From: Ignavibacteriota bacterium
GTDB taxonomy: Bacteria; Bacteroidota; Ignavibacteria; Palsa-1295
Length of the DNA: 64,000 nt
Direction: 5' to 3'
Assembly: GCA_963794025.1 (NCBI GenBank)
Contig: CAWCCK010000022.1
Location: forward strand, 120,937 to 184,936
The translations under genes and the position numbers were made by a program. Shown piece by piece: positions 881-51,675 of this stretch. Numbering within the stretch: position 1 is the stretch's first letter; each line of letters starts with the position of its first letter. The notes below the pieces were generated by a model that did not search any database, was not told where the DNA came from, and saw nothing but the letters and a program-made list of their open reading frames with translations.

Positions 881-3514
881 CTACAGTGCCGCCTTAATTT
901 TGTCGATTTTTGTTAGCAGGGTACCAATTTCGTTTTGCACCCTAATGTCTGGCAGATGAATCGATTGCATCTCGGCGTATTCTTTGTTGAATGTGGCATT
1001 GTCGCTTTTTGATGAGACAATGTTAAAAAAAAGTGGCTGTAGATGAAAAGCAACGAACCGCATGTTGATTTTACTTTTCCATTCGGGTTTGACCGTCATA
1101 ACATAAGCGTGGTCATTCGTTGCATACGTCTCATTTTTAAAATATTGCATTGACCCAGCATAGCCGTTTCGTGCAATCAATATCGTTTCCCCCGAAAATA
1201 TCTTTAATTTTCTCCCATCTTCGAATGTGGCATTCCTTGAAATGTATCCCATTTCAGTGTCTTCCATTGTAGAACTTGAAAGTATCTTTACTTCGTCATC
1301 TTTGTCAATCGGGCTATTGTGATAAATGAATTCCTCAGTTAAACCGCTATTCCCACCCGTGATCTCGAACATAGTTCCAATGTCTGCGGTTATAGTTGGT
1401 GTGACGGTCAAGGAATATTTATGTATCTCTTGAATGGAATCGGCAATTTTGTGAAAATTTACCGCACCAACCTGATCCAATATCTTTTGGATTTCACTTT
1501 CGAATTTTTGGGTAGTGATTGGTGTCGTTTCAAAGGGTCTCAGATGGAATTCTGATAAAAGATTGAAATAATTTTCCTCATTGATTTCCGATGCGTCCAC
1601 GTATTTGAACTTATAACCATTCAAACCCTCAGCAATCTCTCGCTGGTTCACTTTCCTTTCATATTGGTTCTTGTGGCTTTCATACTTTCGAGCGTCGGAG
1701 ATGAAATTTCGGATATTACTAACAGCGTTTGAAAAGATATTTTCCACCTCTACGATATCATCATGGTATTTAGTTCTGTAACGTTTGTCGCTATTAGCAA
1801 ATCCATCATAGTCTAGAATGTAATGCCATATTGGAAAAGTCTGCATAAAGCCGATTTCTCCTTCTTGCTTTCTTCTCATAAATAAGACGTAAGTTTTTTC
1901 CTTAGTATAAGGTGCAAAAGCAAACTTACTTAAAGAAATAATGGCGTACACATCACAATTGTCTAATAGCTTTTTTCTGAACTCTACGCGCGATGGAGTT
2001 TCAAGAGCGCCGTCATTCAATACAATCGCGATTTCGCCTCCATGTTTTACGGCATTGATAACCTTCTCGACAAACATTAATTCGTATCTTTTTTCGTTTG
2101 TGAAGCTAAAGCTGTCGATGTCAGCGTCGCCATCGTACTTACCCATCGGAGGATTTGTAAGTATATAGTCAAACACTCCCTCATCCCACCCTTGTTTAGC
2201 AACTTGTGTAAGGGAGTCATTCTTATAGATATGAACATGCCCGTCTCCAACTAAAAACATATTCAGCTTAGTTCTGGCGACAGACTCGAAATCGAAATCA
2301 AATCCCCAAAAGATTTCTTCTTTTAATTGTTTTTTTACTTTTTCGTTCAGTTGGGAATTTATAGAGTAGTTGCTTACTAGGGTCTTAAAAGCTTCTGTTA
2401 AAAAGCCACCAGTTCCGCAAGCGGGGTCACACACCCTTAGGTTGCGTACATTGACTTCGTTTCTCAACAAGAGCCGTGCAACTAAGCCCGTAATGTGTCG
2501 GCGCGTATAAAACTCGCCAAATTTCTTTTTCTTGCCCTGCGAAGCAAACTCTTCATAAATAGCACCGAATAGGTCAAAATTTGCTCCATGAAAATTATAT
2601 TGATCTAACTCATTATAGATTTTCACGAAGTGTTCGTGGCGAAGATTGCTTGAGAATTTAATTAGTTCTTTGAAATCTTTATAATTGTTGTTCTTGTAGG
2701 TGTCGTTATTCCAAATATAATTTACCATCGTTTCAAATTCCACCTTCAAGTCGCTGGCAACGGAACCTTTTGCGATATTTCTGAAGTCTCCCCATAATTT
2801 AATAACGGGATCTAATGTTCTCTTCTCTTTTTCATACTCATCAATATATTTAAGTACTACGAAGCTCACCGTAGGATCAATACGTGCATCTCCTTCTTTG
2901 ATGGCGGCCGATCGATAAATATCTGCAAGTGTTTTCAATGAATTCCGGAATTTACTTTCAGCAAAAGGCTGCGTAAGTGTTACCGACTTGTGTCTTACAT
3001 CCGAATTCTCGCTTGTTACCTGCGTCTGTATTTTTTTGAGGACTTCAATGGGAACAAGATGATTCAATAACCTACCATCAAGTGAAATCTCTTCATCATT
3101 ATTTACATTATAGAACCTCGTTTCTGAAACGCAGTTAGTAACGATATAGAAAGCAAGTTTCTGCCCTCTCGCTTTTTTTGCGCCGTGCTCCATTGCATTG
3201 CGCCAATCCATGTCCCCGACATTTGAATTGCGGTGTTTCGCTTCGATCAGGCTGGTGATATTTTTTTCGAAACTCGAATCTTTTTGTTTCGAGGTAGAGA
3301 TCCACACGTCTCCGCGTAAGCTACCCGATTTTTCGGTTGTAACATCCACCTTACAATAATCAACGGTTATACCCACCTCCGCTAATTGGGGCAGAAGGTA
3401 TTGGACTATGTCGTTTGCTTCCTGACGCTTCATGATGTGATTAATACGAACTGCTAAGTTTGGAGAATTTGTTTTTGTAACGGGAAAACGATTCAGGCAA
3501 GAAGAACGTCCCAC
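881..3514 (-). CDS. Type IIG (MmeI/Eco57I-like) restriction-modification enzyme. It fuses an N-terminal PD-(D/E)xK endonuclease, an N6-adenine DNA methyltransferase and a C-terminal target-recognition region. The true start is probably the internal Met near 3433.
   Basis: SAM motif I VCDPACGTGGFL and catalytic motif IV DYILTNPPMG are present. The N-terminus has a PD..ExK-like signature (RGDVWI ... IEAKHRN). The protein is about 850 aa in one polypeptide, and the segment is markedly AT-rich relative to its flanks. Confidence 0.75.
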   Translation of the reverse strand: MGRSSCLNRFPVTKTNSPNLAVRINHIMKRQEANDIVQYLLPQLAEVGITVDYCKVDVTTEKSGSLRGDVWISTSKQKDSSFEKNITSLIEAKHRNSNVGDMDWRNAMEHGAKKARGQKLAFYIVTNCVSETRFYNVNNDEEISLDGRLLNHLVPIEVLKKIQTQVTSENSDVRHKSVTLTQPFAESKFRNSLKTLADIYRSAAIKEGDARIDPTVSFVVLKYIDEYEKEKRTLDPVIKLWGDFRNIAKGSVASDLKVEFETMVNYIWNNDTYKNNNYKDFKELIKFSSNLRHEHFVKIYNELDQYNFHGANFDLFGAIYEEFASQGKKKKFGEFYTRRHITGLVARLLLRNEVNVRNLRVCDPACGTGGFLTEAFKTLVSNYSINSQLNEKVKKQLKEEIFWGFDFDFESVARTKLNMFLVGDGHVHIYKNDSLTQVAKQGWDEGVFDYILTNPPMGKYDGDADIDSFSFTNEKRYELMFVEKVINAVKHGGEIAIVLNDGALETPSRVEFRKKLLDNCDVYAIISLSKFAFAPYTKEKTYVLFMRRKQEGEIGFMQTFPIWHYILDYDGFANSDKRYRTKYHDDIVEVENIFSNAVSNIRNFISDARKYESHKNQYERKVNQREIAEGLNGYKFKYVDASEINEENYFNLLSEFHLRPFETTPITTQKFESEIQKILDQVGAVNFHKIADSIQEIHKYSLTVTPTITADIGTMFEITGGNSGLTEEFIYHNSPIDKDDEVKILSSSTMEDTEMGYISRNATFEDGRKLKIFSGETILIARNGYAGSMQYFKNETYATNDHAYVMTVKPEWKSKINMRFVAFHLQPLFFNIVSSKSDNATFNKEYAEMQSIHLPDIRVQNEIGTLLTKIDKIKAAL

Positions 3515-9029: not shown

Positions 9030-9551
9030 TTGATGGGGCTTATGTTGGAGAATTTACACGACAAGCTCTCACCTAAAGAGAGAGAAATCTTTCATGCTCT
9101 TGAAACGCAGGAGCGCGAAGGACTTGCCGAGATGTATCTTGGCGCTAAAATTTGTTGGCTTGACGAGAATCAACCCGAACGGATGGCTATCACTGCACAC
9201 TGTTTACGGGAATTATGTGAAAAGCTCCGCTGGAACAAAAATCATCAGAGCCTGGGAGATGTGGTTAAACAGATTGTAAGTGATTATTCGAAGATAAAGG
9301 AGCCGCTGATCATGGCACACACACAAAAACAGCATGATGACAATATGGGAACTGCGATTCAAATGTTAGAATCGCTTTCAAGTTATGCTGAAGAAAATTT
9401 AAAATCAAAGGCAAATCAAATTGAAGATTTTGTAAAAAACCATCGAAAAATCGACCTTCCAATTAACAATCGAATCTCGAGTGATTGGAAAAAATCGGAA
9501 GATTATTTTATTAGAGTAGCCCATCATTCCCAAAGAAGTAATCCTAAATGA
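9030..9551 (+). CDS. Hypothetical protein in an AT-rich island.
   Basis: 173-aa ORF with no recognisable motifs. Its GC content is low relative to the flanking DNA. Confidence 0.4.
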   Translation: MMGLMLENLHDKLSPKEREIFHALETQEREGLAEMYLGAKICWLDENQPERMAITAHCLRELCEKLRWNKNHQSLGDVVKQIVSDYSKIKEPLIMAHTQKQHDDNMGTAIQMLESLSSYAEENLKSKANQIEDFVKNHRKIDLPINNRISSDWKKSEDYFIRVAHHSQRSNPK

Positions 9552-9653
9552 AATGGAAGACATTATTAATCATTTGGAAAATCTTCTTTTACCCCTCATA
9601 AAACCGCAAGGGACTGGGAACATTTCTTGAAATGCTTAGAAAAATAAAGGAGG

Positions 9654-10628
9654 TTGAAAATGATCTCAAAAAATGAGCTTGAAGAAATTCTGCCATTGAT
9701 AAATACCCGCGCGGCATATAAAGCTTTTCCTGATGCTTTGGAGAGTCCAGATTGGATTCCAGCCCTGGTCGAAGCTGGTTTATTCTCAAAACCTGCGGAA
9801 CCGGATATTCAAGCTACGGATTTTTTCGGGAAACCTTCCACGTCAATCGGCTTTCCTGAGTGGCCTCCCTCTCGTTACCTTGCAAGAATGGGTTCCACGA
9901 AAGATCCAGTTGTTCTTGATGCCATAAAAGCAATTCCCCAAAACGATAACATTTACATTCACTCCGACTTAATCGATGTGCTGCTTAATTATTCGCTTTC
10001 GGAAACCCGCACGATTGTTGAGAACGAATTAGATTGGATTCAGAGCCAGTCACAACTCTATCTGTACTATCCAGATAAAATCGTAAAATTAATAGAACAC
10101 GTACTTCCGGAGGATCCTTCGTTAGCCATTGAATTAACCGGTGCGGTATTCGCAGTAAATATGAAAGAGGATGAATTTGGTGGACGTCCTACTCGTAGGG
10201 AAGACCTCCTCAAGTTTGACGGATGGGAATACAATGAGCTGCTCAAACGCCTGTCGCTTTCGTTTGTGCAGGCGCAGTCCCTTGATTTTGCGAACTGGGT
10301 AATTAGCCAGCTTGAATTGATCCTGACTTCAATTGCACCAGAAACAAAAATTATTGCAGGTGTCCGAGATGATTTTTCATGGATTTGGCGCCAGACGATT
10401 GAAGAATCGGAAGAACATCATATCGATTGGAATGGACGAAATGCCTTAATTACATCTCTTAGAGAAACAGGTCTCGGATTTACATCATTGACTGGAAACG
10501 CGGCTTTAGGACTTATCAATCTTCTGAAGGAGAGTGAATGGATTATTTTCAAACGTTTTGGACTGTTTTTTGTCTCCACTAATCCAGAACGGTTCCCAGT
10601 TGAAACCCGAGAATATCTCTTAAAGTAG
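9654..10628 (+). CDS. Hypothetical alpha-helical protein. It may be the N-terminal part of a larger disrupted gene running to 12409.
   Basis: 324-aa ORF. The same frame stays open after a single TAG at 10626-10628 for about 109 more codons. A third frame, open from 10772, leads into the 10850 ORF. Confidence 0.4.
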   Translation: MKMISKNELEEILPLINTRAAYKAFPDALESPDWIPALVEAGLFSKPAEPDIQATDFFGKPSTSIGFPEWPPSRYLARMGSTKDPVVLDAIKAIPQNDNIYIHSDLIDVLLNYSLSETRTIVENELDWIQSQSQLYLYYPDKIVKLIEHVLPEDPSLAIELTGAVFAVNMKEDEFGGRPTRREDLLKFDGWEYNELLKRLSLSFVQAQSLDFANWVISQLELILTSIAPETKIIAGVRDDFSWIWRQTIEESEEHHIDWNGRNALITSLRETGLGFTSLTGNAALGLINLLKESEWIIFKRFGLFFVSTNPERFPVETREYLLK

Positions 10629-10849
10629 GAGAACTTTGATGTACCCGCTTTGCGCCATGAAGTACTTGATGCTGATGCGAGAGGGTTATCATCTTCTCGG
10701 CGACGAAGAGCGCATGGTAAATGGGAGTACATTGACGAAACGAAGGATTCAATTAAATATCAATGGTATAACTCGCTCAAGATTTCCGATCACCGCAACG
10801 GCAGGAACAGTTTCTTGCTTTTGCGGAGACCGAATATTCTCAAGAAAAT

Positions 10850-12409
10850 GTGTTTGAATTCCCGTTTGTGTTTAGCACACACATGGGAACTGTTAGCCCT
10901 ATATCCGCTGATGATTTGCTACAAAAATCAGATGATGATCTTATTGCGTACTTAAGAACTTGGCAGAGTGCTGATCAACTGAGAGAGCCAAACGTTGAAG
11001 GCCTTTCCGATGTCTTGGGGACAGCTGCAACAATTGATCCGGGACGAATAGGGAACCTCCTTTTGCAAATTGATGCAATTAACGAGCCGACTTTTCTCAG
11101 TTCTGCACTCCGAGGACTTGTCGAGGCTTTGCGCGGGGCAGCAACATTTGATATTAATTCAATTTTGAGGGCTTGCTTAACAATTGAATTTGGTGATCGT
11201 CAAACTCGATCTCAAACGCCCCAATCGGGGGAAGACCTCGATCGCAACTGGACATGGTCTGCATCTTGCGCTCTCGATTTCGTTCGAACTTCCATAGATG
11301 GCGATAAGCTAAATCATGAAGCATTGCCATTGGCGTTGGATGTGATTGCGAAGCTTATCAATCATCCTAATCCAACTGTGGAGGAAGAGACCAGTCGTTT
11401 GGCTTATGAAGACCCCCTTACAATCGCAATAAATTCGACCAAGGGCAAAGCTACAGATGCACTTCTCGCACTTGCGCGATGGTGTGCCACTAAGAATTTG
11501 CTAGAACAATACCGCGAGACATTTGAAAACATCTTTTCCTTAAATATTTCGGAAGATCAGAAATCTCTCGCTGTCCGCGCGGTTTATGGAATGAATTTAA
11601 TACCGTTGCTTTCTATCTTTCCTGACTGGACAAAAGCTTCTTTGCGTCTGATTTTTCCTGATAATATAGTCGAATTCCTTGCAGCATGGCAAGCGTATAT
11701 TGTTTACTCTAACCCCCAGGTACAATTCCTTGGTGCGTTGAAAATTTATTATGAACGAAACATAGAAATTTACCGAGAAGGACTTAATCCAAATCTTGGG
11801 CGAATGATTGAGGACCCAGGGATGCGTCTGGCAGATCATTTCGCTTCGATATGTATCAATTCGGAATGGGAACTTACGGAACCGCTCCTATCCACTTTTT
11901 TTAATTCCGTTGATTCAAAATATAAGGCTGAATTCTGGCGTTACATCGGTAGAAATTTGTCTACATTCGGTGAAAAGTGGCCAAGGAGTCTATTGGCTCG
12001 CATGGCTAGATTCTGGACATCAAGACGTGAAACGAATGAAATGACTCGTGAGGAGGCATTAACTTTTGGTTGGTGGGTAATTTGCAGATCATTTGATACT
12101 GGATGGGCATTGCAAGAGCTTGAATACGCTTTAACTCGATCTGATGCCTCAGGAATTGAACGTTCGGATCAATGTATCGAGTTTATTGCCAATGCATCCG
12201 CTACGCATCCCGAAAGTTCGCTCTCCGCACTTATAGCGTATCTAAAAACGCTCACAAATGGATATGAGGCTGCTTATCTTTCCGGTCACATAAAAATAAT
12301 TTTGAAGAACTCCTTGCCGAAGTTCGCGGATGAGGTTGACACTGCTGTCGATCTCTTGGTAGGTCTCGGTTTGCTTGAGTTTAAAAGCTATCCAAGTGCT
12401 GCCAACTAA
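10850..12409 (+). CDS. Hypothetical large alpha-helical protein (GTG start), possibly continuous with the 9654 ORF.
   Basis: 519-aa ORF. Its upstream frame reads LAQDFRSPQRQEQFLAFAETEYSQENVFEF..., which also looks like coding sequence. The region is AT-rich. Confidence 0.4.
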   Translation: MFEFPFVFSTHMGTVSPISADDLLQKSDDDLIAYLRTWQSADQLREPNVEGLSDVLGTAATIDPGRIGNLLLQIDAINEPTFLSSALRGLVEALRGAATFDINSILRACLTIEFGDRQTRSQTPQSGEDLDRNWTWSASCALDFVRTSIDGDKLNHEALPLALDVIAKLINHPNPTVEEETSRLAYEDPLTIAINSTKGKATDALLALARWCATKNLLEQYRETFENIFSLNISEDQKSLAVRAVYGMNLIPLLSIFPDWTKASLRLIFPDNIVEFLAAWQAYIVYSNPQVQFLGALKIYYERNIEIYREGLNPNLGRMIEDPGMRLADHFASICINSEWELTEPLLSTFFNSVDSKYKAEFWRYIGRNLSTFGEKWPRSLLARMARFWTSRRETNEMTREEALTFGWWVICRSFDTGWALQELEYALTRSDASGIERSDQCIEFIANASATHPESSLSALIAYLKTLTNGYEAAYLSGHIKIILKNSLPKFADEVDTAVDLLVGLGLLEFKSYPSAAN

Positions 12410-12455
12410 GTCGCAAGCGTGGTGTAACTCCACACGTTTGCATTTCAACGACCCA

Positions 12456-12480
12456 GGACGTGCGCAGCACGTCCCTACGG
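12456..12480 (+). repeat. REP-like hairpin GGACGTGCgcaGCACGTCC followed by CTACGG.
   Basis: Perfect 8-bp stem with a 3-nt loop. A near-identical reverse-complement copy lies at 55061-55085 (cgtagggacgtgctgtgcacgtcc). Confidence 0.55.
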
Positions 12481-12564
12481 TTAAACCCGACGTGCTTCTG
12501 CGCGCCGAAACTTCCCCTCCCCGCTCGCGGTTAAATCCCATGATTCTTCTTTTACACTTTCATC

Positions 12565-13347
12565 ATGAACTTCATTTATACTATTTCTCTTCCGCTGCTT
12601 GCGGCGTTATCGGTTGTCATTGCCGTAGCATTGTCGCTTGGCGGGCTTGCGCTGTTTCACCGCATGGTGAATACCGACGAGCTTCGGGAAAGCCACGATG
12701 TCGCCGGTTTTGTGTATGCTGTCGTCGGCGTGATCTACGCGGTACTGCTGGCGTTCGTGGTGATCGTGGTGTGGGAACAGTTCCGCAATGCGGATGACAT
12801 CGCGGAGAACGAGGCCATGCACATCGGTAATGTCCGTCAGCTTGCGAAAGCGTTCCCGGATTCTGTTTCCAAAGCGATCTCGACCAACGTGGAGGACTAC
12901 GCGCAATCGGTCATCACGCGCGAATGGCCGGCGATGGCCCAGGGCCACTCCGATCGTCAGACGTATGAGTATTCGAAAAAACTGTGGAACACGTTTTACG
13001 AATTTCATCCTTCGCCGACGGAACAGCCGTATTACAACGAAGCCTTGCGGGAACTCACAAGCTTTAACGATGCTCGGCGTTTGCGCATTATCGGTATCGA
13101 TGGAACGATGCCGACGATCATGTGGACGCTGCTCTTAGGCGGTGGAATTATTTGCATCGGGTTCACGTATCTATTTGCTACGCCGCATAAGTTTACGCAA
13201 TACCTCATCACGGGTCTTCTCGCTGCGATGATCGCCGTCACGCTGTTTCTGATCGCGGAGATGAACCATCCCTATCGCGGCGGCATGAGCCTCCAGCCGG
13301 ACGGATTCGAATTCGTGCTGCACGGCCCGGCTGCACTGAAGGAGTGA
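12565..13347 (+). CDS. DUF4239-family (bestrophin-like) membrane protein.
   Basis: Two N-terminal TM helices and two C-terminal TM helices. The motifs GFVYAVVGVIYAVLLAFVVIVVWEQF and EA.HIGNV are typical of DUF4239. Confidence 0.55.
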   Translation: MNFIYTISLPLLAALSVVIAVALSLGGLALFHRMVNTDELRESHDVAGFVYAVVGVIYAVLLAFVVIVVWEQFRNADDIAENEAMHIGNVRQLAKAFPDSVSKAISTNVEDYAQSVITREWPAMAQGHSDRQTYEYSKKLWNTFYEFHPSPTEQPYYNEALRELTSFNDARRLRIIGIDGTMPTIMWTLLLGGGIICIGFTYLFATPHKFTQYLITGLLAAMIAVTLFLIAEMNHPYRGGMSLQPDGFEFVLHGPAALKE

Positions 13348-13359
13348 GGAATCTGTGTT

Positions 13360-13788
13360 TCAGACTGGAACGTTTCTCCAATTACCGATCTCAAGATCGA
13401 AGCCAAGATCGCGTATTCGCTGAAAGTGACGCTCATTTCCGGTGATGAGTGGAAGACGATAGAGGATGGCTGTTGCCGCAATAATTGGATCAATGACGCC
13501 AATCGGAATTCCGCGCCGATCGAGTTCGGCGAGTATCTGTCCGGCAAGCTGGGCTTCTTCTGTTCTTATGGGAAGAATCTCGTGTGCTTCGAATACTTCA
13601 AGTAAGGTTGGAAACGCTTCTGGATGTCGTGTTCGGTGAAGTCCTTTTGAAACTTCGAGCACGGTTGCAGCGGATAACGTCAGAACTCCATGCTCGGACA
13701 AATAAGATTTAGCAACACGTTTTACGGAAAGACATCTGCCTTTAACTACCTCGGAAAAAATATCGGTATCGAGCAGGGACTTATCCAT
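13360..13788 (-). CDS. vapC: PIN-domain ribonuclease toxin VapC.
   Basis: N-terminal LLDTDIFSE with a conserved Asp, PIN-like acidic residues (IDPIIAATA...TGNERHF), about 140 aa, and a small upstream partner gene. Confidence 0.7.
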   Translation of the reverse strand: MDKSLLDTDIFSEVVKGRCLSVKRVAKSYLSEHGVLTLSAATVLEVSKGLHRTRHPEAFPTLLEVFEAHEILPIRTEEAQLAGQILAELDRRGIPIGVIDPIIAATAILYRLPLITGNERHFQRIRDLGFDLEIGNWRNVPV

Positions 13789-13790
13789 TA

Positions 13791-14006
13791 TTATTCATTT
13801 GGTGCGCGAAGCGGGAGGGAACGGGTGTGAATAACGTCAACCATCATCTCGTCAATAATATCTGGCCGGTCGGCAAAGAGACCGATAGGATTTTTAGCCG
13901 ATGGACGTAACGGCTTCTCATGCTCGACAAGATTGCGCACATATTTCTGCGAGCGATAATCGCAATGCTCGCGCTTGGCGTTCTGCGCGATCGAATGTCC
14001 GATCAT
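13791..14006 (-). CDS. Putative VapB-type antitoxin. The start codon is uncertain.
   Basis: Small ORF abutting vapC (3-nt gap). The C-terminal segment NPIGLFADRPDIIDEMM resembles VapB/Phd C-terminal tails. Confidence 0.4.
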   Translation of the reverse strand: MIGHSIAQNAKREHCDYRSQKYVRNLVEHEKPLRPSAKNPIGLFADRPDIIDEMMVDVIHTRSLPLRAPNE

Positions 14007-18581: not shown

Positions 18582-18588
18582 TAATTAA

Positions 18589-18614
18589 GAATTACGAATT
18601 TCAAATTACGAATT
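18589..18614. repeat. AATTACGAATT tandem motif (2 units).
   Basis: Member of the dispersed AATTCGTAATT family (19308-19340, 31316-31342, 31933-31995, 37633-37657, 51224-51234). Confidence 0.55.
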
Positions 18615-18621
18615 GTAAAAA

Positions 18622-19308
18622 CTAAACGCTGGAAGGCGCGATAAATTTCATTCCAGCTTCTGCGTGTCTCCGCAAAAGCGTAGCTACGCGGTAACGCTCG
18701 GAACCATATTCTCCGGCGAGTGCGTCAAGGATAGCGACGATCGCTTCTGCGCCGATCTCATCGCACCACGCAAGCGGCCCTTTCGGATAATTCGTTCCGA
18801 GCTTCATCGCGGTGTCGATGTCTGCGGCCGTCGCAACAGATTCTTGTACCGCGAAGGCTGCTTCGTTAATTATCATTGCAAGCGTTCGTGGGAACACGCC
18901 AGCGATGGCATCTTTTATCTCTTCACCCGTCTTACCAAGCAATGTGAGAAACTTCCCGACAGTTTCGTTGTAGTGGCTGGGTTCCCCAGCCCGCACTCCG
19001 AAGGGAAACGAATATTCCACGCTTTTCTGTCGAGCAAAATAATGCGGCAGGATGGGCATCCCAATTATGTGCACACCTTTTTTCACAGCATGTTGCGCGG
19101 TGGTGGCGCTCAAGGTTAGCGTATTGGAAATGATGGGAACGTTGGTCTCGAATTTCGAGAGATATTCCGCTTTTTTCACAGGATCGAGAAACGTGAGGCC
19201 GAGCACAAGGTCGGGTTCGCTTGTTACGAGTTTGACATTCTCCATCCCCGAAAAATAGGATGTGAATGACGGAAGATACAGTTCATCCGCGAACAGTTGG
19301 ATTTTCAA
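18622..19308 (-). CDS. 3-hydroxyacyl-CoA dehydrogenase family protein with a divergent N-terminus lacking an obvious GxGxxG motif.
   Basis: The C-terminal segment AMKLGTNYPKGPLAWCDEIG matches the 3HCDH C-terminal domain, and the gene is adjacent to a thiolase. Confidence 0.5.
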   Translation of the reverse strand: MKIQLFADELYLPSFTSYFSGMENVKLVTSEPDLVLGLTFLDPVKKAEYLSKFETNVPIISNTLTLSATTAQHAVKKGVHIIGMPILPHYFARQKSVEYSFPFGVRAGEPSHYNETVGKFLTLLGKTGEEIKDAIAGVFPRTLAMIINEAAFAVQESVATAADIDTAMKLGTNYPKGPLAWCDEIGAEAIVAILDALAGEYGSERYRVATLLRRHAEAGMKFIAPSSV

Positions 19309-19340
19309 AATTCGTAATTCGTAATTTGAAATTCGTAATT
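19308..19340. repeat. AATTCGTAATT tandem motif (3 units).
   Basis: aaattcgtaattcgtaatttgaaattcgtaatt, in the orientation opposite to the 18589 copy. Confidence 0.55.
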
Positions 19341-20513: not shown

Positions 20514-21116
20514 TCACTTCTGTATGATTACGTTATAGAATCGTTCACCATTAGGAAAATCTTCCAGTTCTTCCCAAAGTAATTCAAATCCTATATTCCG
20601 TAACATAGACCGATATTCTTCAGGGCCGAAGTGCGACCAATACATTGTGACACCTTTCCACTCATGAATGATACTTTCTTCGGATTTTGCACCGAGAGTA
20701 AGGAAAGCTACTCCGGAAGCTTTGAGCCATTTCCATATATTCCTGAACAGCTTTTCTTGTTCTGATTGTGGAATATGAATGATTGCGAATGTACTCACAA
20801 TAAGATCGAAACTTGCTTCGTCGAACTGGCATTCCGCCATGTCGCCTCTAATGAAATCACCTTGAGGAAGTTGTCTGCGCGCTATCTCGATCATTTGTTC
20901 GGAAACATCGACGCCAGTAACTTGAAAGCCCTTTCGTGCGAAGTATCCAGTTACAGGTTCCCCACCTCCACAACCTAAATCGAGCATTTTTCCAGACTGC
21001 GGGAAAAATTGTGAAAGAGAATCGAAATATTCGCTCACTACCTCTTTTCGAGTGAGTCTATTGGAATTATATTCAGCAGCAATTTTATCGTAGCCTTTCT
21101 CGACAATTTCTTTCAT
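20514..21116 (-). CDS. Class I SAM-dependent methyltransferase.
   Basis: Motif I MLDLGCGGGEPV; 200 aa. Confidence 0.7.
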   Translation of the reverse strand: MKEIVEKGYDKIAAEYNSNRLTRKEVVSEYFDSLSQFFPQSGKMLDLGCGGGEPVTGYFARKGFQVTGVDVSEQMIEIARRQLPQGDFIRGDMAECQFDEASFDLIVSTFAIIHIPQSEQEKLFRNIWKWLKASGVAFLTLGAKSEESIIHEWKGVTMYWSHFGPEEYRSMLRNIGFELLWEELEDFPNGERFYNVIIQK

Positions 21117-31315: not shown

Positions 31316-31342
31316 CAATTACGAATTACGAATTACGAATGG
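31316..31342. repeat. AATTACGAATT tandem motif (3 units).
   Basis: caattacgaattacgaattacgaatg, immediately followed by a hairpin element at 31366. Confidence 0.55.
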
Positions 31343-31932: not shown

Positions 31933-31995
31933 AATTACGAATAAGGGAACACTCAGTCCCTATAATTCGTAATTCGTAACTCGTAATTCGTAATT
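31933..31995. repeat. Inverted arrangement of AATTACGAAT / AATTCGTAATT units (1 + 4 units) around a short hairpin.
   Basis: aaattacgaataagggaacactcagtccctataattcgtaattcgtaactcgtaattcgtaatt. Together with 31316-31342 it brackets the DUF4236 gene. Confidence 0.55.
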
Positions 31996-36760: not shown

Positions 36761-37647
36761 AGCGCGAATCCAATTCCAAAGCTGACGGACGTGCCGAGAT
36801 CGGGATGACGAACTGCCGCGAAGTCGGCAGTGAAGTTCCCAGTAGCGACACCAATGCCTCCGGAAATTTCTCCGGTTCCCGTATCCCCGCCCGCGCGAAC
36901 GAAGAGGTGGGAATCAATATCATATTCCGCGCCGACGTGAAAAGCAGCGTTATATTCCGCGCTCGATTCGAACGCGGCGTCCAGCGTAAGATCGTTTGTC
37001 GCACGATATGAAAGTCCAAACCATCCCACGCGATCTTCGACGGAGTCGCCATAATTATTATAGAGGCTGACGAGGTGCGTAACGGCGGCGGCAAGTGTAA
37101 GATTTGGGAACAGATCGAAACTTACGCCCAGATCCACGCCGATGTCATCAAGCGGAAGGTACTCGGAACCAAAAGTTTCCTGCGAATAGCGAATACGGAT
37201 GCCGGCCACGGCATGGCGCCTGGTAGAACTATCGCCGTCGTTAACATTCGTTCCGCCAACGGCAAATGTTCTCGATGCCTGGATGCCAAATGTTTGCCAG
37301 GAATAGGCGTCGGTCCATTGATACCGGCTGAGCGACACACCGGCAAGCCAAAGCGGATCGAGCGGAATATCCCCGGCAAATCCGGCGCTCCAGCTTTCGG
37401 GAAGTCCCAACGGCAGTGGCGAAAGCGTTGCGTGCAGATGAGATGACGTATCGACTGGGAGTGCGGGACTCGGAACCCATTCATCGCGCGCATCGGCTAG
37501 ATCGCTGCCACCGATCGCGAGTGAGCGTGGGGAATCGCTCGTAGCGCCGAAAATCTGCGCGTGCGCGATGGGAACTTCGGTCAGCGCAATAAAAAGAAAA
37601 ACGCAGAACAGGACGCGCATGGGACAAGTACAAATTACGAATGACAA
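36757..37647 (-). CDS. Outer-membrane beta-barrel protein (PorP/SprF-like or OMP_b-brl-like).
   Basis: Signal peptide MRVLFCVFLFIALTEVPIAHAQ, alternating hydrophobic beta-strand pattern, about 296 aa, ending GIGFAL. Confidence 0.45.
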   Translation of the reverse strand: MSFVICTCPMRVLFCVFLFIALTEVPIAHAQIFGATSDSPRSLAIGGSDLADARDEWVPSPALPVDTSSHLHATLSPLPLGLPESWSAGFAGDIPLDPLWLAGVSLSRYQWTDAYSWQTFGIQASRTFAVGGTNVNDGDSSTRRHAVAGIRIRYSQETFGSEYLPLDDIGVDLGVSFDLFPNLTLAAAVTHLVSLYNNYGDSVEDRVGWFGLSYRATNDLTLDAAFESSAEYNAAFHVGAEYDIDSHLFVRAGGDTGTGEISGGIGVATGNFTADFAAVRHPDLGTSVSFGIGFAL

Positions 37648-37657
37648 ATTACGAATG
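37633..37657. repeat. AAATTACGAATGA tandem motif (2 units).
   Basis: aaattacgaatgacaaattacgaatga. Confidence 0.5.
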
Positions 37658-41814: not shown

Positions 41815-42090
41815 CTATTCACATTGAAGAATTTTATTAAGCTCTTTTGGAGTCTTCCGATAAGCTCCCTCAATCAAGAATAAATAGGGCTTTACATGAA
41901 GCACTTTTGCGATATTGACGAGTTTATATACCGTTATATTGCGTTCCGCTCTTTCAATATAGCCGATATAATTAGGATGGAGCCTTGACTCTTCAGCCAA
42001 ACGAGATTGTGACCATCCACGCTTCGTTCTGAACCCACGGACATTATCGCCAATAATAGAGCTAATCGTCACATGGCGTTTTACTACCAT
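41815..42090 (-). CDS. XRE-family helix-turn-helix transcriptional regulator.
   Basis: HTH_3 pattern GDNVRGFRTKRGWSQSRLAEESRLHPNYIGYIERAERNITVYKLVNIAKVL. Confidence 0.7.
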   Translation of the reverse strand: MVVKRHVTISSIIGDNVRGFRTKRGWSQSRLAEESRLHPNYIGYIERAERNITVYKLVNIAKVLHVKPYLFLIEGAYRKTPKELNKILQCE

Positions 42091-42198: not shown

Positions 42199-44910
42199 AT
42201 GATTAACTCGATGTTTTCGAAAAAGCAAGCTCTGATTGCTTGCTTCACATTGATTCTTTCCACTGGCACGCTTCACGCCCAGCCTTATGCCAACAATTGG
42301 ACTGAAATCACCGATGGCGGCGATACCATCTACCATACGTGGCCGCCGTCCGATAGCGTGTGGCTTCATGACCAGATCGTAATTAAGTTCCGAAGGGGAA
42401 TGCTCGATTATGCACAACTCTGTTACAATTGCGACACAATCGTGAGTGGCGGATTAGCTTCCGATTCACCACGGTATTTCCCAACCTGCAAGCAGACCCT
42501 CATGACACAGGAGTTCGATACAAGTGTTGTTATCGACTTAGCGACGAAAATCATTTTACAAACGCATGGCTTGTCCTATCTTCGCCGAATGACTGCTGCG
42601 AATCCATGTGCAGATACTCTTAGCATTACTCGGCTGGGCGATACTATTCCAATGGATCATTACGATTGGATGGTCGCGCAATTCAATAACGATACGAGTG
42701 TGCTCACTACCTTAGCGGCATTGTATGCACCTGGTATGAAAGGAATAGAAATCGCTGAACCGGTCTATCTCATGCAATTAGCGCATTTACCACGCACTCC
42801 AAACGATCCGTGGTGTATCGACACGCCCCACAATCCTTGGCCCTACTTTCAAATTAGTCTCAATGGGATTGATTGGGGCGATGGTCGCTGGGGTATCGGT
42901 ATGCAATCGGCTTGGGGTTACGATGTTGGGAGTACGCCGGGGCATGCTCCACTTGTCGTTTCAGTGATTGATAATGGCATTGATTACTGGCGGTGCGATT
43001 TCGGTGGAGAACCAATTCCAAATAGTAAGGTCAGCGGCGGATGGGATTTTTTAAGAAACAACGACACAACCATCTACTTGGGAACGTGCCCACTTGGCGA
43101 TGATGGTGGCGCAGGTGCTTCTAATCATGGGACACCCATTGCAGGTATCATCGGCGGACTTACGAATAACGAAGGGTGTAATGTATATGCAGGCTTACCC
43201 AATGCGATGGCGGGTATTGCTGGCGGATGGGGCCCACTTTATGGAGCAACCAATCTCGGAACCGGCGTGCAACTTCTTGGATACAATGTCATTGATCCTT
43301 CAACATGCACCCCATTAAGTCAATTTCCTCGCAGCGATTGGGCCGCCAGCGCGATACTGGAATCGGCAGGTAACTCAGTCAACGGTCATTACGGAACCAA
43401 AGCTGACGTCATAAATGCAAGCTGGTACATATCGCCAAATGCATCTTTGCTTGCAATCCGGTCTGCAGTAGCGGAATCATTCCGAAACAAGGTCTCGTTC
43501 GTTGCATGTGCAGGAAATTTAAATAGTGAAGCTCTATTTTGGCCAGCCGGTATTGAACCAGCCAGTGAGGTTACTTCTGTCGGGGCTGCTACTAAAGCAG
43601 CAACGGGATCAGCGGCAGATATTATTTCAAGGGCTGATTATTCAAACTATAACCATTACACCGATCTTGTCGCGCCGGGGGGAGAGCCAGAAAGCGACCG
43701 CGATGGCTTAGATAATAGCGTCTATTCTCTTCAAGATGACACCCTTGATGGCCCAACATACGCATCCAACGATCCTGACAGAGGGAGCTATTTTAGTGGC
43801 ACATCCTTTGCCGCACCTCATGTTGCTGGAGTTGCGGCGTTGATCCGAGACTATCTGCAAACGGGCGGCTATATGAGCGATCCCAATGATCAGTATTATT
43901 TCGAAGACATCGAAGGCATTCTCAAGGCTTCGTCGCTTGATTTTGGGTACAATCCAGCCAGCCCACTTCCACAACCACCCACCGACCCGTGGGCTGCTCC
44001 ATATCACCCTGATCCAGATGGAGTTACAAATTATCAGGTTGGATTCGATGAGGAAGCAGGCTGGGGGTTATTGCAAGCCGATCAGGCATTTTATATGCTC
44101 GATCCCGCTGGCCTCGGGTATCGGCTCTTTCATTACTACGTAAGTTCACTTGATGTGGCCTATGGCGCATGGAGTGCCACACCCCAAAAGATACATATTT
44201 ATAATACAATCGGTGGCCCTACCCCTCTTTATCCTGCAACAGGAACCTATATGGCTGAAGTCAGGGAAGATACCGCAAACATAACGTATGCTGGTATTGA
44301 CACCACACTTCCGGTCTATGCCTGGGGATCTACGACTCCTAAAACTGGTTGGTCAAACACAACAAATGTGGGTGGTCTCGGATGGTCCAATTGGGAAGAA
44401 AACTGGTGTGATGTCAAGATGGACACCCACATACCCTCTCGCGATCATGGCAACGGAATCGTTCCTGGAATTCGTCATGATTATTCCAGAACATTAACAG
44501 CACATACCTATCAGTATAGATTATGGGATTCCACAGGGACAAATTACTTGGGGATTTATCCTGATTCGACCGGGGCTGTCGGCGTGAGTTTGTATGTAAC
44601 TATTTTCGGTGTGCCATGTACAGGGTGCAAAATCGCCGACGGCGGCGATCAGGATACCGTTCCAAAGCAAACTTTTCGTGTCTGGCCACCTGTTGCTAAT
44701 TCGATGGTGACAGTCTTAATCGGTGGCGATCAATTAGCTTCGCAATTTGTTCTCGTGGATGCGCTCGGAAGAATTGTTCGACAGCAGAATATTTCGGAAA
44801 ATACACAGCAATTCGAAATACCTACTTCCGATCTTGCATCGGGGTTATATCTTGCACGGCTTATCTATGGGAATGAAATTGAGCAAGCAAAGTTCGTCGT
44901 TCAGCATTAA
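42199..44910 (+). CDS. Subtilisin-like S8 serine peptidase with a type IX secretion C-terminal domain.
   Basis: Catalytic triad motifs VSVIDNGID, NHGTPIAG and GTSFAAPHVAGVAALI, a signal peptide, and a C-terminal T9SS domain (GLYLARLIYGNEIEQAKFVVQH). Confidence 0.8.
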   Translation: MINSMFSKKQALIACFTLILSTGTLHAQPYANNWTEITDGGDTIYHTWPPSDSVWLHDQIVIKFRRGMLDYAQLCYNCDTIVSGGLASDSPRYFPTCKQTLMTQEFDTSVVIDLATKIILQTHGLSYLRRMTAANPCADTLSITRLGDTIPMDHYDWMVAQFNNDTSVLTTLAALYAPGMKGIEIAEPVYLMQLAHLPRTPNDPWCIDTPHNPWPYFQISLNGIDWGDGRWGIGMQSAWGYDVGSTPGHAPLVVSVIDNGIDYWRCDFGGEPIPNSKVSGGWDFLRNNDTTIYLGTCPLGDDGGAGASNHGTPIAGIIGGLTNNEGCNVYAGLPNAMAGIAGGWGPLYGATNLGTGVQLLGYNVIDPSTCTPLSQFPRSDWAASAILESAGNSVNGHYGTKADVINASWYISPNASLLAIRSAVAESFRNKVSFVACAGNLNSEALFWPAGIEPASEVTSVGAATKAATGSAADIISRADYSNYNHYTDLVAPGGEPESDRDGLDNSVYSLQDDTLDGPTYASNDPDRGSYFSGTSFAAPHVAGVAALIRDYLQTGGYMSDPNDQYYFEDIEGILKASSLDFGYNPASPLPQPPTDPWAAPYHPDPDGVTNYQVGFDEEAGWGLLQADQAFYMLDPAGLGYRLFHYYVSSLDVAYGAWSATPQKIHIYNTIGGPTPLYPATGTYMAEVREDTANITYAGIDTTLPVYAWGSTTPKTGWSNTTNVGGLGWSNWEENWCDVKMDTHIPSRDHGNGIVPGIRHDYSRTLTAHTYQYRLWDSTGTNYLGIYPDSTGAVGVSLYVTIFGVPCTGCKIADGGDQDTVPKQTFRVWPPVANSMVTVLIGGDQLASQFVLVDALGRIVRQQNISENTQQFEIPTSDLASGLYLARLIYGNEIEQAKFVVQH

Positions 44911-50019: not shown

Positions 50020-51675
50020 AACTTCCCATTATCTTCCTCATTGATGATGACCCGCAAGTGCTCCGGGCGCTTGCGAGGGATGTTCGGCAAAAATTTAAAA
50101 AGGAATATCAAATTCTGAGCACCGAAGATCCGCAGGAAGCGCTCGAAAGTTTGAAGGAACTAAAACGGACTGGTGAAGAAGTTGCGCTTTTTATTTCCGA
50201 TCAACGTATGCCGCGCATCACGGGCGTTGAACTGCTCGAACAATCGAAAACATTCTATCCCGAAGCGAAGCGGATGCTGCTCACGGCGTATTCCGATATG
50301 GATACCGCCATCCGCGCGATCAACGAAACCGATCTCGATTACTATCTGCTCAAGCCGTGGGATCCGCCGGAAGAAAAACTGTTCCCGATCATTGACGATA
50401 TGATCGATGAATGGTCGTCGAGCTATAAACCGGAACTTGCTGGGATTCGACTTCTCGGATATCAATTTTCTCCGAAGTCTCACGCGATCAAGGAATTTTT
50501 AGCGGGACATCAAATTCCCTACCAATGGATCGATGTCGAAAGCAATCCGAAAGCTGCTGAGATCATGGCGCTCCATGCGATCGCACTTGTCTCGCTTCCG
50601 GCGCTCATCTTCGAAGACGGCACGCTTAGTATCGATATCGAGATCCACGCTGTTGCAGAAAAACTTGGACTTCGGCCCACCGCAAGTTCCAACATGTACG
50701 ATGTCATCATTATCGGCGCTGGCCCGGCGGGGCTTGCGGCGGCTGTGTATGCAGGCTCGGAGGGACTAAAGACCCTCCTCGTTGAAAAACATTCCCCAGG
50801 CGGTCAGGCCGGTACGAGTTCCCGCATCGAAAACTACCTCGGGTTCCCGAAAGGTGTGAGCGGTTCCGAGCTTACGCGGCGGGCCATCACACAGGCTACT
50901 CGGTTCGGGATCGAATTCCTTACGCCGCAAGAAGTGCTGGCGATCACTTCTGCCGATTCCTACAAGACCGTTCAGCTTGCCGATGGCACCGCGATCCATT
51001 CGCGCAGCATCATCATTACGACGGGCGTAGCCTACCGTCAGTTGGAAACAAAAGGTATTGTGGAACTCACCGGAGCTGGCGTCTATTATGGCGCGGCAAC
51101 CATCGAGGCATTGCAAACGCGCGGTAAGCAAGTATATGTTATCGGCGGTGGGAACTCGGCAGGGCAGGCTGCGCTGCATCTTGCAACGTTCGCTGAACGA
51201 GTACATATCGTAATTCGTAAAGAAAGATCTGTCGGCAACGATGTCCTCCTACCTTATCGATCAGATCGGAAAAACACCGAACGTGACCGTGCTGCCGGAG
51301 ACCGAAGTCATCGAAGCGATCGGCCAGGAGCATCTCGAACAATTAGTGCTGCGAATGTCATCTGGGAAGGAATGCACAGTTGCGGCGGATGGCCTATTTA
51401 TTTTGATCGGTGCGCGGCCTTATACCGATTGGGTCAAATCCGATATTTTGAAGGACGACCGTGGATTTATCATTACCGGTCGTGACCTTCTTGCTCGCGA
51501 TTCGTTCAAAGCCGCATGGCCGCTCAAGCGCGATCCCTATTTGCTCGAAACGTGCAGCCCGGGAATTTTTGCTGCGGGCGATGTTCGTTCCGGAGCGATG
51601 AATCGCGTAGCCAGCGCCGTCGGCGAAGGCGCGATGGCCGTTAGTTTCGTTCACCAATATCTGGCCGAAGTTTGA
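50016..51675 (+). CDS. Response-regulator receiver - Cys-less glutaredoxin-like domain - thioredoxin-reductase-like flavoprotein fusion, with an apparent frameshift at about 51225-51240.
   Basis: REC domain with phospho-accepting D in FISDQRMP. Middle domain SPKSHAIKEFLAGHQIPYQWIDV...LPALIFEDG has a Grx fold but no CxxC. TrxR motifs are YDVIIIGAGPAGLAAAVYA and VIGGGNSAGQAALHL. The C-terminal TrxR part (GDVRSGAMNRVASAVGEGAMAV) continues in ORF 51241-51675 after a frame break inside gtaattcgtaaagaaag. Confidence 0.65.

Follow-up and report, generated by a model that had tools for sequence, protein, structure and literature searches.

The sensor of Dsr1 and the TPR sensor of Avs7 are homologous, and the phage major capsid protein triggers both, as shown for SeAvs7 (Salmonella) and EcDsr1 (E. 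coli) only (2026 preprint, PMC12803255). This type of sensor is also found in the absence of a STAND NTPase, beside NADase, nuclease and kinase effectors, and one such protein is the 'HEPN-like RNase-containing protein' of Streptomyces sp. NBC_00271 (PMC12803255). We found no mention of an effector encoded by a separate gene in the main text of that preprint. Here we analyze a locus in a 64,000-nucleotide stretch of an Ignavibacteriota bacterium genome (contig CAWCCK010000022.1, positions 120,937 to 184,936; hereafter the window, whose coordinates are used throughout). Three hypothetical open reading frames (ORFs) at 9030-12409, referred to as the cassette, are most likely fragments of two genes rather than three genes. 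With a probability of roughly 0.68, we read the cassette as a two-gene anti-phage module, acquired horizontally and inactivated by lesions.

The three ORFs lie on the forward strand at 9030-9551 (ORF1, 173 aa), 9654-10628 (ORF2, 324 aa) and 10850-12409 (ORF3, 519 aa), where a sequence-only reading of the window had placed them. That reading had also proposed that 9654-12409 is a single alpha-helical gene of about 900 aa, broken by an in-frame TAG and one frame switch. ORF2 terminates with a TAG at 10626-10628, and three-frame translation of 10500-11000 bears out both of the details given for the region beyond it: frame 0 stays open as far as 10955, reading HGKWEYIDETKDSIKYQW, and another frame gives coding-like sequence, RQEQFLAFAETEYSQENVFEF, leading into ORF3. 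A protein search with the conceptual concatenation returned the annotated C-terminal piece at 100% identity (P0001, 508 aa, which the source annotation begins at ATG 10883), then P0002, a protein of 916 aa with 46% identity over 100% of the query, and then proteins of 926-989 aa. When P0002 was compared with the window by tblastn, two colinear blocks spanning 9660-12406 were obtained, in which residues 1-374 match 9660-10781 in a single frame that runs through the TAG and residues 372-914 match 10781-12406 in a different frame. The N-terminal 322 codons (9660-10625, ORF2) are 44% identical to and colinear with P0002 residues 1-322, and the C-terminal ~543 codons, in a third frame at 10778-12409, are 49% identical to residues 372-914. 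On this homology, 9660-12406 reads as one ancestral gene of ~915 aa, in agreement with the proposed single gene. The predicted helical character also holds, as the AlphaFold2 model of P0002 is an almost all-helical alpha-solenoid (pLDDT 84.8, pTM 0.56).

The gene is broken at more places than had been proposed: the TAG is joined by three frame switches, not one. We placed these lesions by frameshift-aware dynamic-programming alignment to P0002, supported by segment translations and local contexts. The TAG (10626-10628) falls where relatives mostly have Arg (consensus ..xRxLF..), and the three frameshifts lie near 10663, 10719 and 10778, forming with it a cluster whose remaining part covers 10629-10777. 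After the TAG the ancestral reading continues in frame 0 as ENFDVPALRHE; a +1 shift near 10663 is followed by YLMLMREGYHLLGDEERMV, which corresponds to YIGLVRAAYEFLEPAEKTT of P0002; a −1 shift near 10719 leads to KWEYIDETKDSIKYQWYNS (KWEYIDETK…), and a last −1 shift near 10778 comes before the C-terminal piece. As judged from the P0002 model, ORF2 covers the N-terminal part of the alpha-solenoid up to, but not including, its last five helices. The conserved LRHEY..L.R..(F/Y) motif, which lies within the lesion stretch, is undamaged after frame correction.

Because the ancestral reading can be traced through every lesion with its homology kept, the full-length protein might in principle still be made by read-through of the TAG combined with ribosomal frameshifting. 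For such programmed recoding the ribosome would have to read through once and shift three separate times, in both directions, within 152 nt, and to shift twice more in the upstream gene. The inspected shift sites contain no slippery heptamer, Rfam finds no RNA family and hence no recoding element anywhere in the window, and the same arrangement was found in no relative, either among the GTDB loci or among the 150 top representatives described below. We regard recoding as a scarcely credible explanation.

The sequence-only reading had recognized no known domain. Pfam likewise gives nothing significant in the three ORFs, in the bridging frame or in five intact homologues, but the PADLOC models for Dsr1 (PDLC04166, PDLC04167, PDLC02183) do identify the protein. 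ORF3 matches PDLC04166 at E = 2.1e-19 (profile positions 722-1007), and the intact homologues match Dsr1 at 3.5e-14 to 5.7e-48 over positions ~414-1221 of 1227. This stretch of ~800 residues is all of Dsr1 except its SIR2 part. By these profile matches, the large protein is assigned to the Dsr1/Avs7-type sensor family. Pfam found no SIR2 domain in ORF1-ORF3, the five intact homologues or the 207-aa partner of P0002 introduced below, and no NTPase domain in the intact homologues, which start directly with the solenoid. The P0002 model contains a low-confidence linker at residues 399-408 and is compatible with two lobes; sensors of the Avs7/Dsr1 type are bilobed, bent, TPR-like alpha-solenoids (PMC12803255). 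ATG 10883 falls at the start of this linker, such that ORF3 from that codon encodes everything C-terminal to it, which we read as the C-lobe. A Foldseek search of the 916-aa model against the PDB returned generic solenoids only, such as karyopherins, and searching PDB sequences with the family profile yielded a single marginal match to RBL4 (E = 0.0017) and no solved Dsr1 or Avs7 structure.

ORF1 had been described as a hypothetical gene of the island. It is a separate ORF, and by homology and gene order it appears to be the conserved partner of the large gene, itself broken by two frameshifts at its 3′ end. On the contig of P0002 (L001), a 207-aa gene (P0100) lies directly upstream of the large gene and overlaps it by 4 bp, with the small gene ending at 10004 and the large gene beginning at 10001 of that contig. 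ORF1 is 39% identical to P0100 over its intact 5′ part (9042-9531), which keeps the conserved AH..RE and VAHH motifs, but terminates early, at TGA 9549-9551. Its decayed 3′ end (9532-9661) was recovered by tblastn and frameshift-aware alignment to P0100. A +1 shift near 9532 moves the homologous reading into the next frame as EVILNEMEDIINHLENLLLPLIKPQGTGNIS, with the absent tail at 9553-9627 (MEDIINHLENLLLPLIKPQGTGNIS), and a second +1 shift near 9629 moves it into the third frame (EMLRKIKEVEN), a reading that ends on the ATG of the large gene.

A hidden Markov model of the small protein places it directly upstream of the large gene, on the same strand, in 66 of 81 loci. In at least eight loci (L020, L029, L034, L035, L043, L047, L065, L071) the two are fused in frame, the fused relatives reaching ~1150-1250 aa. 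Other long relatives (L018, L019, L023, L031, L068 from Actinoplanes and L076 from Amycolatopsis) carry an N-terminal domain that looks different; this domain nevertheless aligns with the small-protein family at an hhalign probability of 88.8% (E = 2.5e-6), and the H..RE and AH(H/R) motifs agree. In alignments of 19 and 69 small-protein sequences, R56 and E57 are invariant and H53 and H161 nearly so, and the near-invariant E180 and L183 lie in the conserved C-terminal ~40 residues. The catalytic Rx4-6H motif of HEPN domains was not found in these alignments, where H161 is preceded by a single, unconserved Arg, at −8. Three relatives score 26.5-26.8 against the pP_pnuc_1 family (PF18165, a predicted pPIWI-associating nuclease; Pfam gathering cut-off 26.3), over only ~40 of the 133 profile positions, and Pfam gives no PF18165 match for ORF1 or P0100. 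We describe the small protein as helical and putatively HEPN-like in fold, but non-canonical as it is without Rx4-6H. Some of its relatives (P0020, P0022, P0025, P0027, P0029, P0030; 341-376 aa) bear an extra N-terminal DUF4062 domain (PF13271), an indication that the helical domain of ~210 aa can double as an adaptor for a further effector.

Homologues of the large gene consistently occur as one long ORF. A family profile built from five full-length relatives retrieved 8,359 cluster-50 representatives (4,000 with E below 1e-30), and the best 150 of these 8,359 are all single polypeptides of 903-1307 aa spanning profile positions 1-950. The gene is present in 80 GTDB species loci from bacteria and archaea. 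Where it is not cut by a contig end it forms a single ORF of ~930-990 aa or ~1050-1250 aa, except in L036, L052 and L063; the ORFs of ~1600 aa in L028 and L045 look like run-through from the upstream gene. L036 has a small gene broken into two pieces, with ~1.9 kb between it and a truncated large gene, and in L052 and L063 the ORFs are shortened within their contigs. Decay of the two-gene module may recur across the family. P0002 remains the nearest relative found: a search of 5.8 billion clustered proteins, made with a view to the ratio of nonsynonymous to synonymous substitution rates and to reconstruction at the nucleotide level, returned nothing closer than 46% identity, and neither did a scan of metagenome contigs with P0001.

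The relatives are thus uninterrupted where the window copy has a stop and frameshifts with homology continuing across them, as is expected of a pseudogene. With six lesions across the two genes (two +1 frameshifts in the small gene, the TAG and three frameshifts in the large one), we read them as most likely a recent pseudogene pair. Several observations weigh against this view. The four lesions of the large gene are confined to 152 of its 2,747 bp (P about 6.5e-4 under uniform placement), and the conserved residues in that stretch are intact once the frames are corrected. The remaining 2.6 kb has diverged no further than an intact gene, being 25.1% identical to 108 outgroups (24.7% for P0002) and keeping 61 of 84 highly conserved columns (63 of 84 in P0002). 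All five indels are of a single base, and four of the five lie in runs of 2-4 nt, as sequencing or consensus errors would also give. Finally, we know of no experimentally tested member of this exact two-gene form, and its function is argued from homology and context. Clustered damage of very recent date, a local consensus error and selection that keeps the fragments would each be compatible with the lesion pattern.

If local consensus errors of the assembly produced the stop and the five indels, the gene pair would be intact in the organism. An accessory island with poor coverage or strain variation, in an assembly made from a metagenome or from long reads, could give rise to errors of this kind. 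The single-base size of all five indels (+/−1 nt), the placement of four of them in short runs (CC, TT, AAA, CC), the arrangement of the lesions in two tight clusters with the clustering probability given above, and the otherwise undamaged encoded residues, conserved motifs included, are all in line with it. An independent short contig also fits uneven coverage or a graph break here: Logan contig L116 (run ERR11630394) is 100% identical to window 12453-13942 and ends 44 bp after the cassette stop. Exact look-ups of P0001, ORF2, ORF1, the aldehyde dehydrogenase and the extracytoplasmic function (ECF) sigma factor found no independent assembly of the cassette; only the adjoining contig of 1,490 bp was found. 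The other long ORFs in the window, up to 1,031 aa, are however uninterrupted, so the errors would have to be confined to ~250 bp in all. The cassette contains 19 homopolymers of at least 5 nt, including a T7, all of which are in frame, and no indel falls in such a run; the TAG, moreover, is a substitution and not an indel. At least three other loci of the family (L036, L052, L063) also look interrupted, so gene decay does occur in this family. We judge local consensus error to be rather unlikely, if still worth serious consideration. Long-read homopolymer error as a general explanation is rejected on account of the uninterrupted long ORFs and the 19 long homopolymers in frame.

The pattern could also reflect a split but functional system, in which a truncated small protein, a 322-aa N-terminal fragment and a C-lobe fragment (from 10850 or 10883) are expressed and selected, leaving the untranslated stretches between them alone free to gather lesions. 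In each gene, all lesions but the first do lie in sequence that would now go untranslated (9552-9659 and 10629-10849). None of the three ORFs contains a disabling lesion or diverges faster than the intact homologue, and ORF3 from ATG 10883 begins exactly at the modeled linker. The split would, however, remove ~85 residues from both large fragments, comprising five helices of the N-lobe and the RHEY..L.R..F motif, and would deprive the small protein of its conserved C-terminal ~40 residues, E180 and L183 among them. Gaps that had drifted enough to gather three indels should also have lost similarity, and here the similarity is kept. Homologues consistently split at these boundaries would have argued for separate genes; none split at this position was seen among the 80 loci or the 150 top representatives. 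We consider a functional split improbable. We did not count the missing Shine-Dalgarno motif before ORF3 against translation of this ORF, since most genes in the window are without one. A related possibility, to which we give a similarly low weight, is that the pair represents a widespread defense system with the effector and the capsid-type sensor encoded separately, the sensor family numbering thousands of cluster representatives in bacteria and archaea. On this view the lesions of the large gene, kept to 152 bp just upstream of the inter-lobe linker, would mean that its pieces here, in particular the complete C-lobe, are still expressed and useful, for instance as a decoy or stand-alone binder.

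The inactivated module that we favor is supported as a horizontal acquisition by its composition, its ribosome-binding motif, its distant nearest relative and the mobile-element contexts of its relatives. The sequence-only reading had inferred such an origin from a GC content far below that of the flanks. This wording is fair for GC content at third codon positions (GC3), which is 0.365-0.382 in the cassette and 0.54-0.67 in four of five neighboring genes checked (0.43 in the fifth), and slightly strong for total GC, which is 0.424 in the cassette and 0.499 in the remaining window; 3.3% of windows of equal length reach a GC content as low. The sequence AGGAGG at 9647-9652 (+), a Shine-Dalgarno-like motif, stands 7 nt before the ATG of the large gene (9660), and most other genes in the window lack a Shine-Dalgarno motif, consistent with a cassette from a different lineage. 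P0002, only 46% identical, is encoded in a metagenome-assembled genome of Bacteroidetes, and the family is scattered across bacterial and archaeal phyla. Relatives adjoin an integrase, a relaxase and a Metallophos/AAA_15 gene pair (L117), adjoin a methyltransferase and ResIII pair, as in restriction-modification (L118), or sit among toxin-antitoxin pairs (L001). Around the island we found no tRNA, no notable flanking direct or inverted repeats, and no surplus of promoter- or terminator-like sites. Of the contigs with the downstream bestrophin-like gene, the two nearest (76% and 69% identity) have no other flanking gene in common with the window, so nothing is inferred from them about an empty insertion site.

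In the proposed mechanism, gene 1 (ancestrally ~9042-9661) would have encoded an all-helical, HEPN-like protein of ~207 aa with conserved His, Arg and Glu, and gene 2 (ancestrally 9660-12406) an alpha-solenoid sensor of ~915 aa homologous to the part of Dsr1 that is not SIR2. By analogy with Dsr1 and Avs7, the sensor in intact relatives may bind a phage structural protein, and this binding would activate the small effector, presumably an RNase-like HEPN-type domain, to halt the infection. The small domain would come to the sensor by fusion or as a partner translated separately from an overlapping, translationally coupled gene. Since the two genes abut, overlap or fuse in intact relatives, the small domain probably stands where Dsr1 has SIR2. 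Homology, gene linkage and fusions are directly observed here; it is by analogy that we infer the trigger, the enzymatic activity and the defense phenotype. In the window copy, both genes are disrupted and the module is therefore most likely inactive.

Other features of the window include a second compositionally foreign gene of defense type about 5.5 kb from the cassette. This ORF of 877 aa (881-3514, reverse strand) has the lowest GC content in the window (0.39) and combines N6_Mtase and type I specificity (Methylase_S) domains in one polypeptide, resembling a restriction-modification enzyme of fused or type IIG form. A PIN-domain toxin gene (13360-13788, reverse strand) lies just downstream of the cassette and, together with a 71-aa ORF directly upstream of it (13791-14006), looks like a VapBC-type toxin-antitoxin pair. 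Two further ORFs on the reverse strand are low in GC against the window mean of ~0.50 (20514-21116, 0.41; 41815-42090, 0.40). Tandem arrays of the heptamer TCGTAAT occur in intergenic positions, mostly directly upstream of start codons (18584-18611, 19305-19339, 31318-31338, 31967-31994 and 37627-37654; also 64-77, 43159-43172 and 51208-51221), with 18 matches at up to two mismatches against 0.77 expected from shuffles. These arrays could be a dispersed regulatory or 5′-UTR element.

For annotation, the favored reading replaces three 'hypothetical proteins' with two pseudogenes of a defense module, and the AT-rich island becomes an instance of a common thing, a decayed, horizontally acquired immunity cassette. 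More broadly, the sensor very often has a partner, a helical protein of ~210 aa encoded by its own gene and bearing conserved H-x2-R-E and H motifs. This protein is a candidate effector for a large clade of sensors that have no SIR2 domain or Pfam match.

Among the closest known systems, Dsr1 is the most directly comparable. The large protein shares homology with the last ~800 residues of Dsr1, the sensor part of that protein; it is likewise an alpha-solenoid, its relatives are found among defense and mobile genes, and the fused relatives have a total length (~1150-1250 aa) similar to that of Dsr1. The differences are that the SIR2 NADase domain of Dsr1 is not found in the window ORFs or the intact relatives, which have the ~210-aa helical HEPN-like domain instead, and that Dsr1 joins effector and sensor in one polypeptide whereas two genes encode them here and in most loci. 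Even the fused forms carry a non-SIR2 domain, unlike Dsr1, and the window copy is broken. From Avs7 the module differs in having no STAND NTPase between effector and sensor, and it is therefore not an Avs protein. The proteins described in PMC12803255 come close in one respect: in the Actinoplanes and Amycolatopsis fusions found in our analysis (L068, L076) the N-terminal domain is a homologue of the small protein, and the architecture of these fusions is probably the same as that of the Streptomyces sp. NBC_00271 protein in the preprint. That protein differs from the present locus and from most loci of the family, in which the effector-like domain is a separate gene and not a fusion. On the side of the small protein, HEPN-domain toxins and effectors (RnlA/LsoA, HEPN-MNT toxins and the HEPN domain of AbiA) also stand among the closest known systems.

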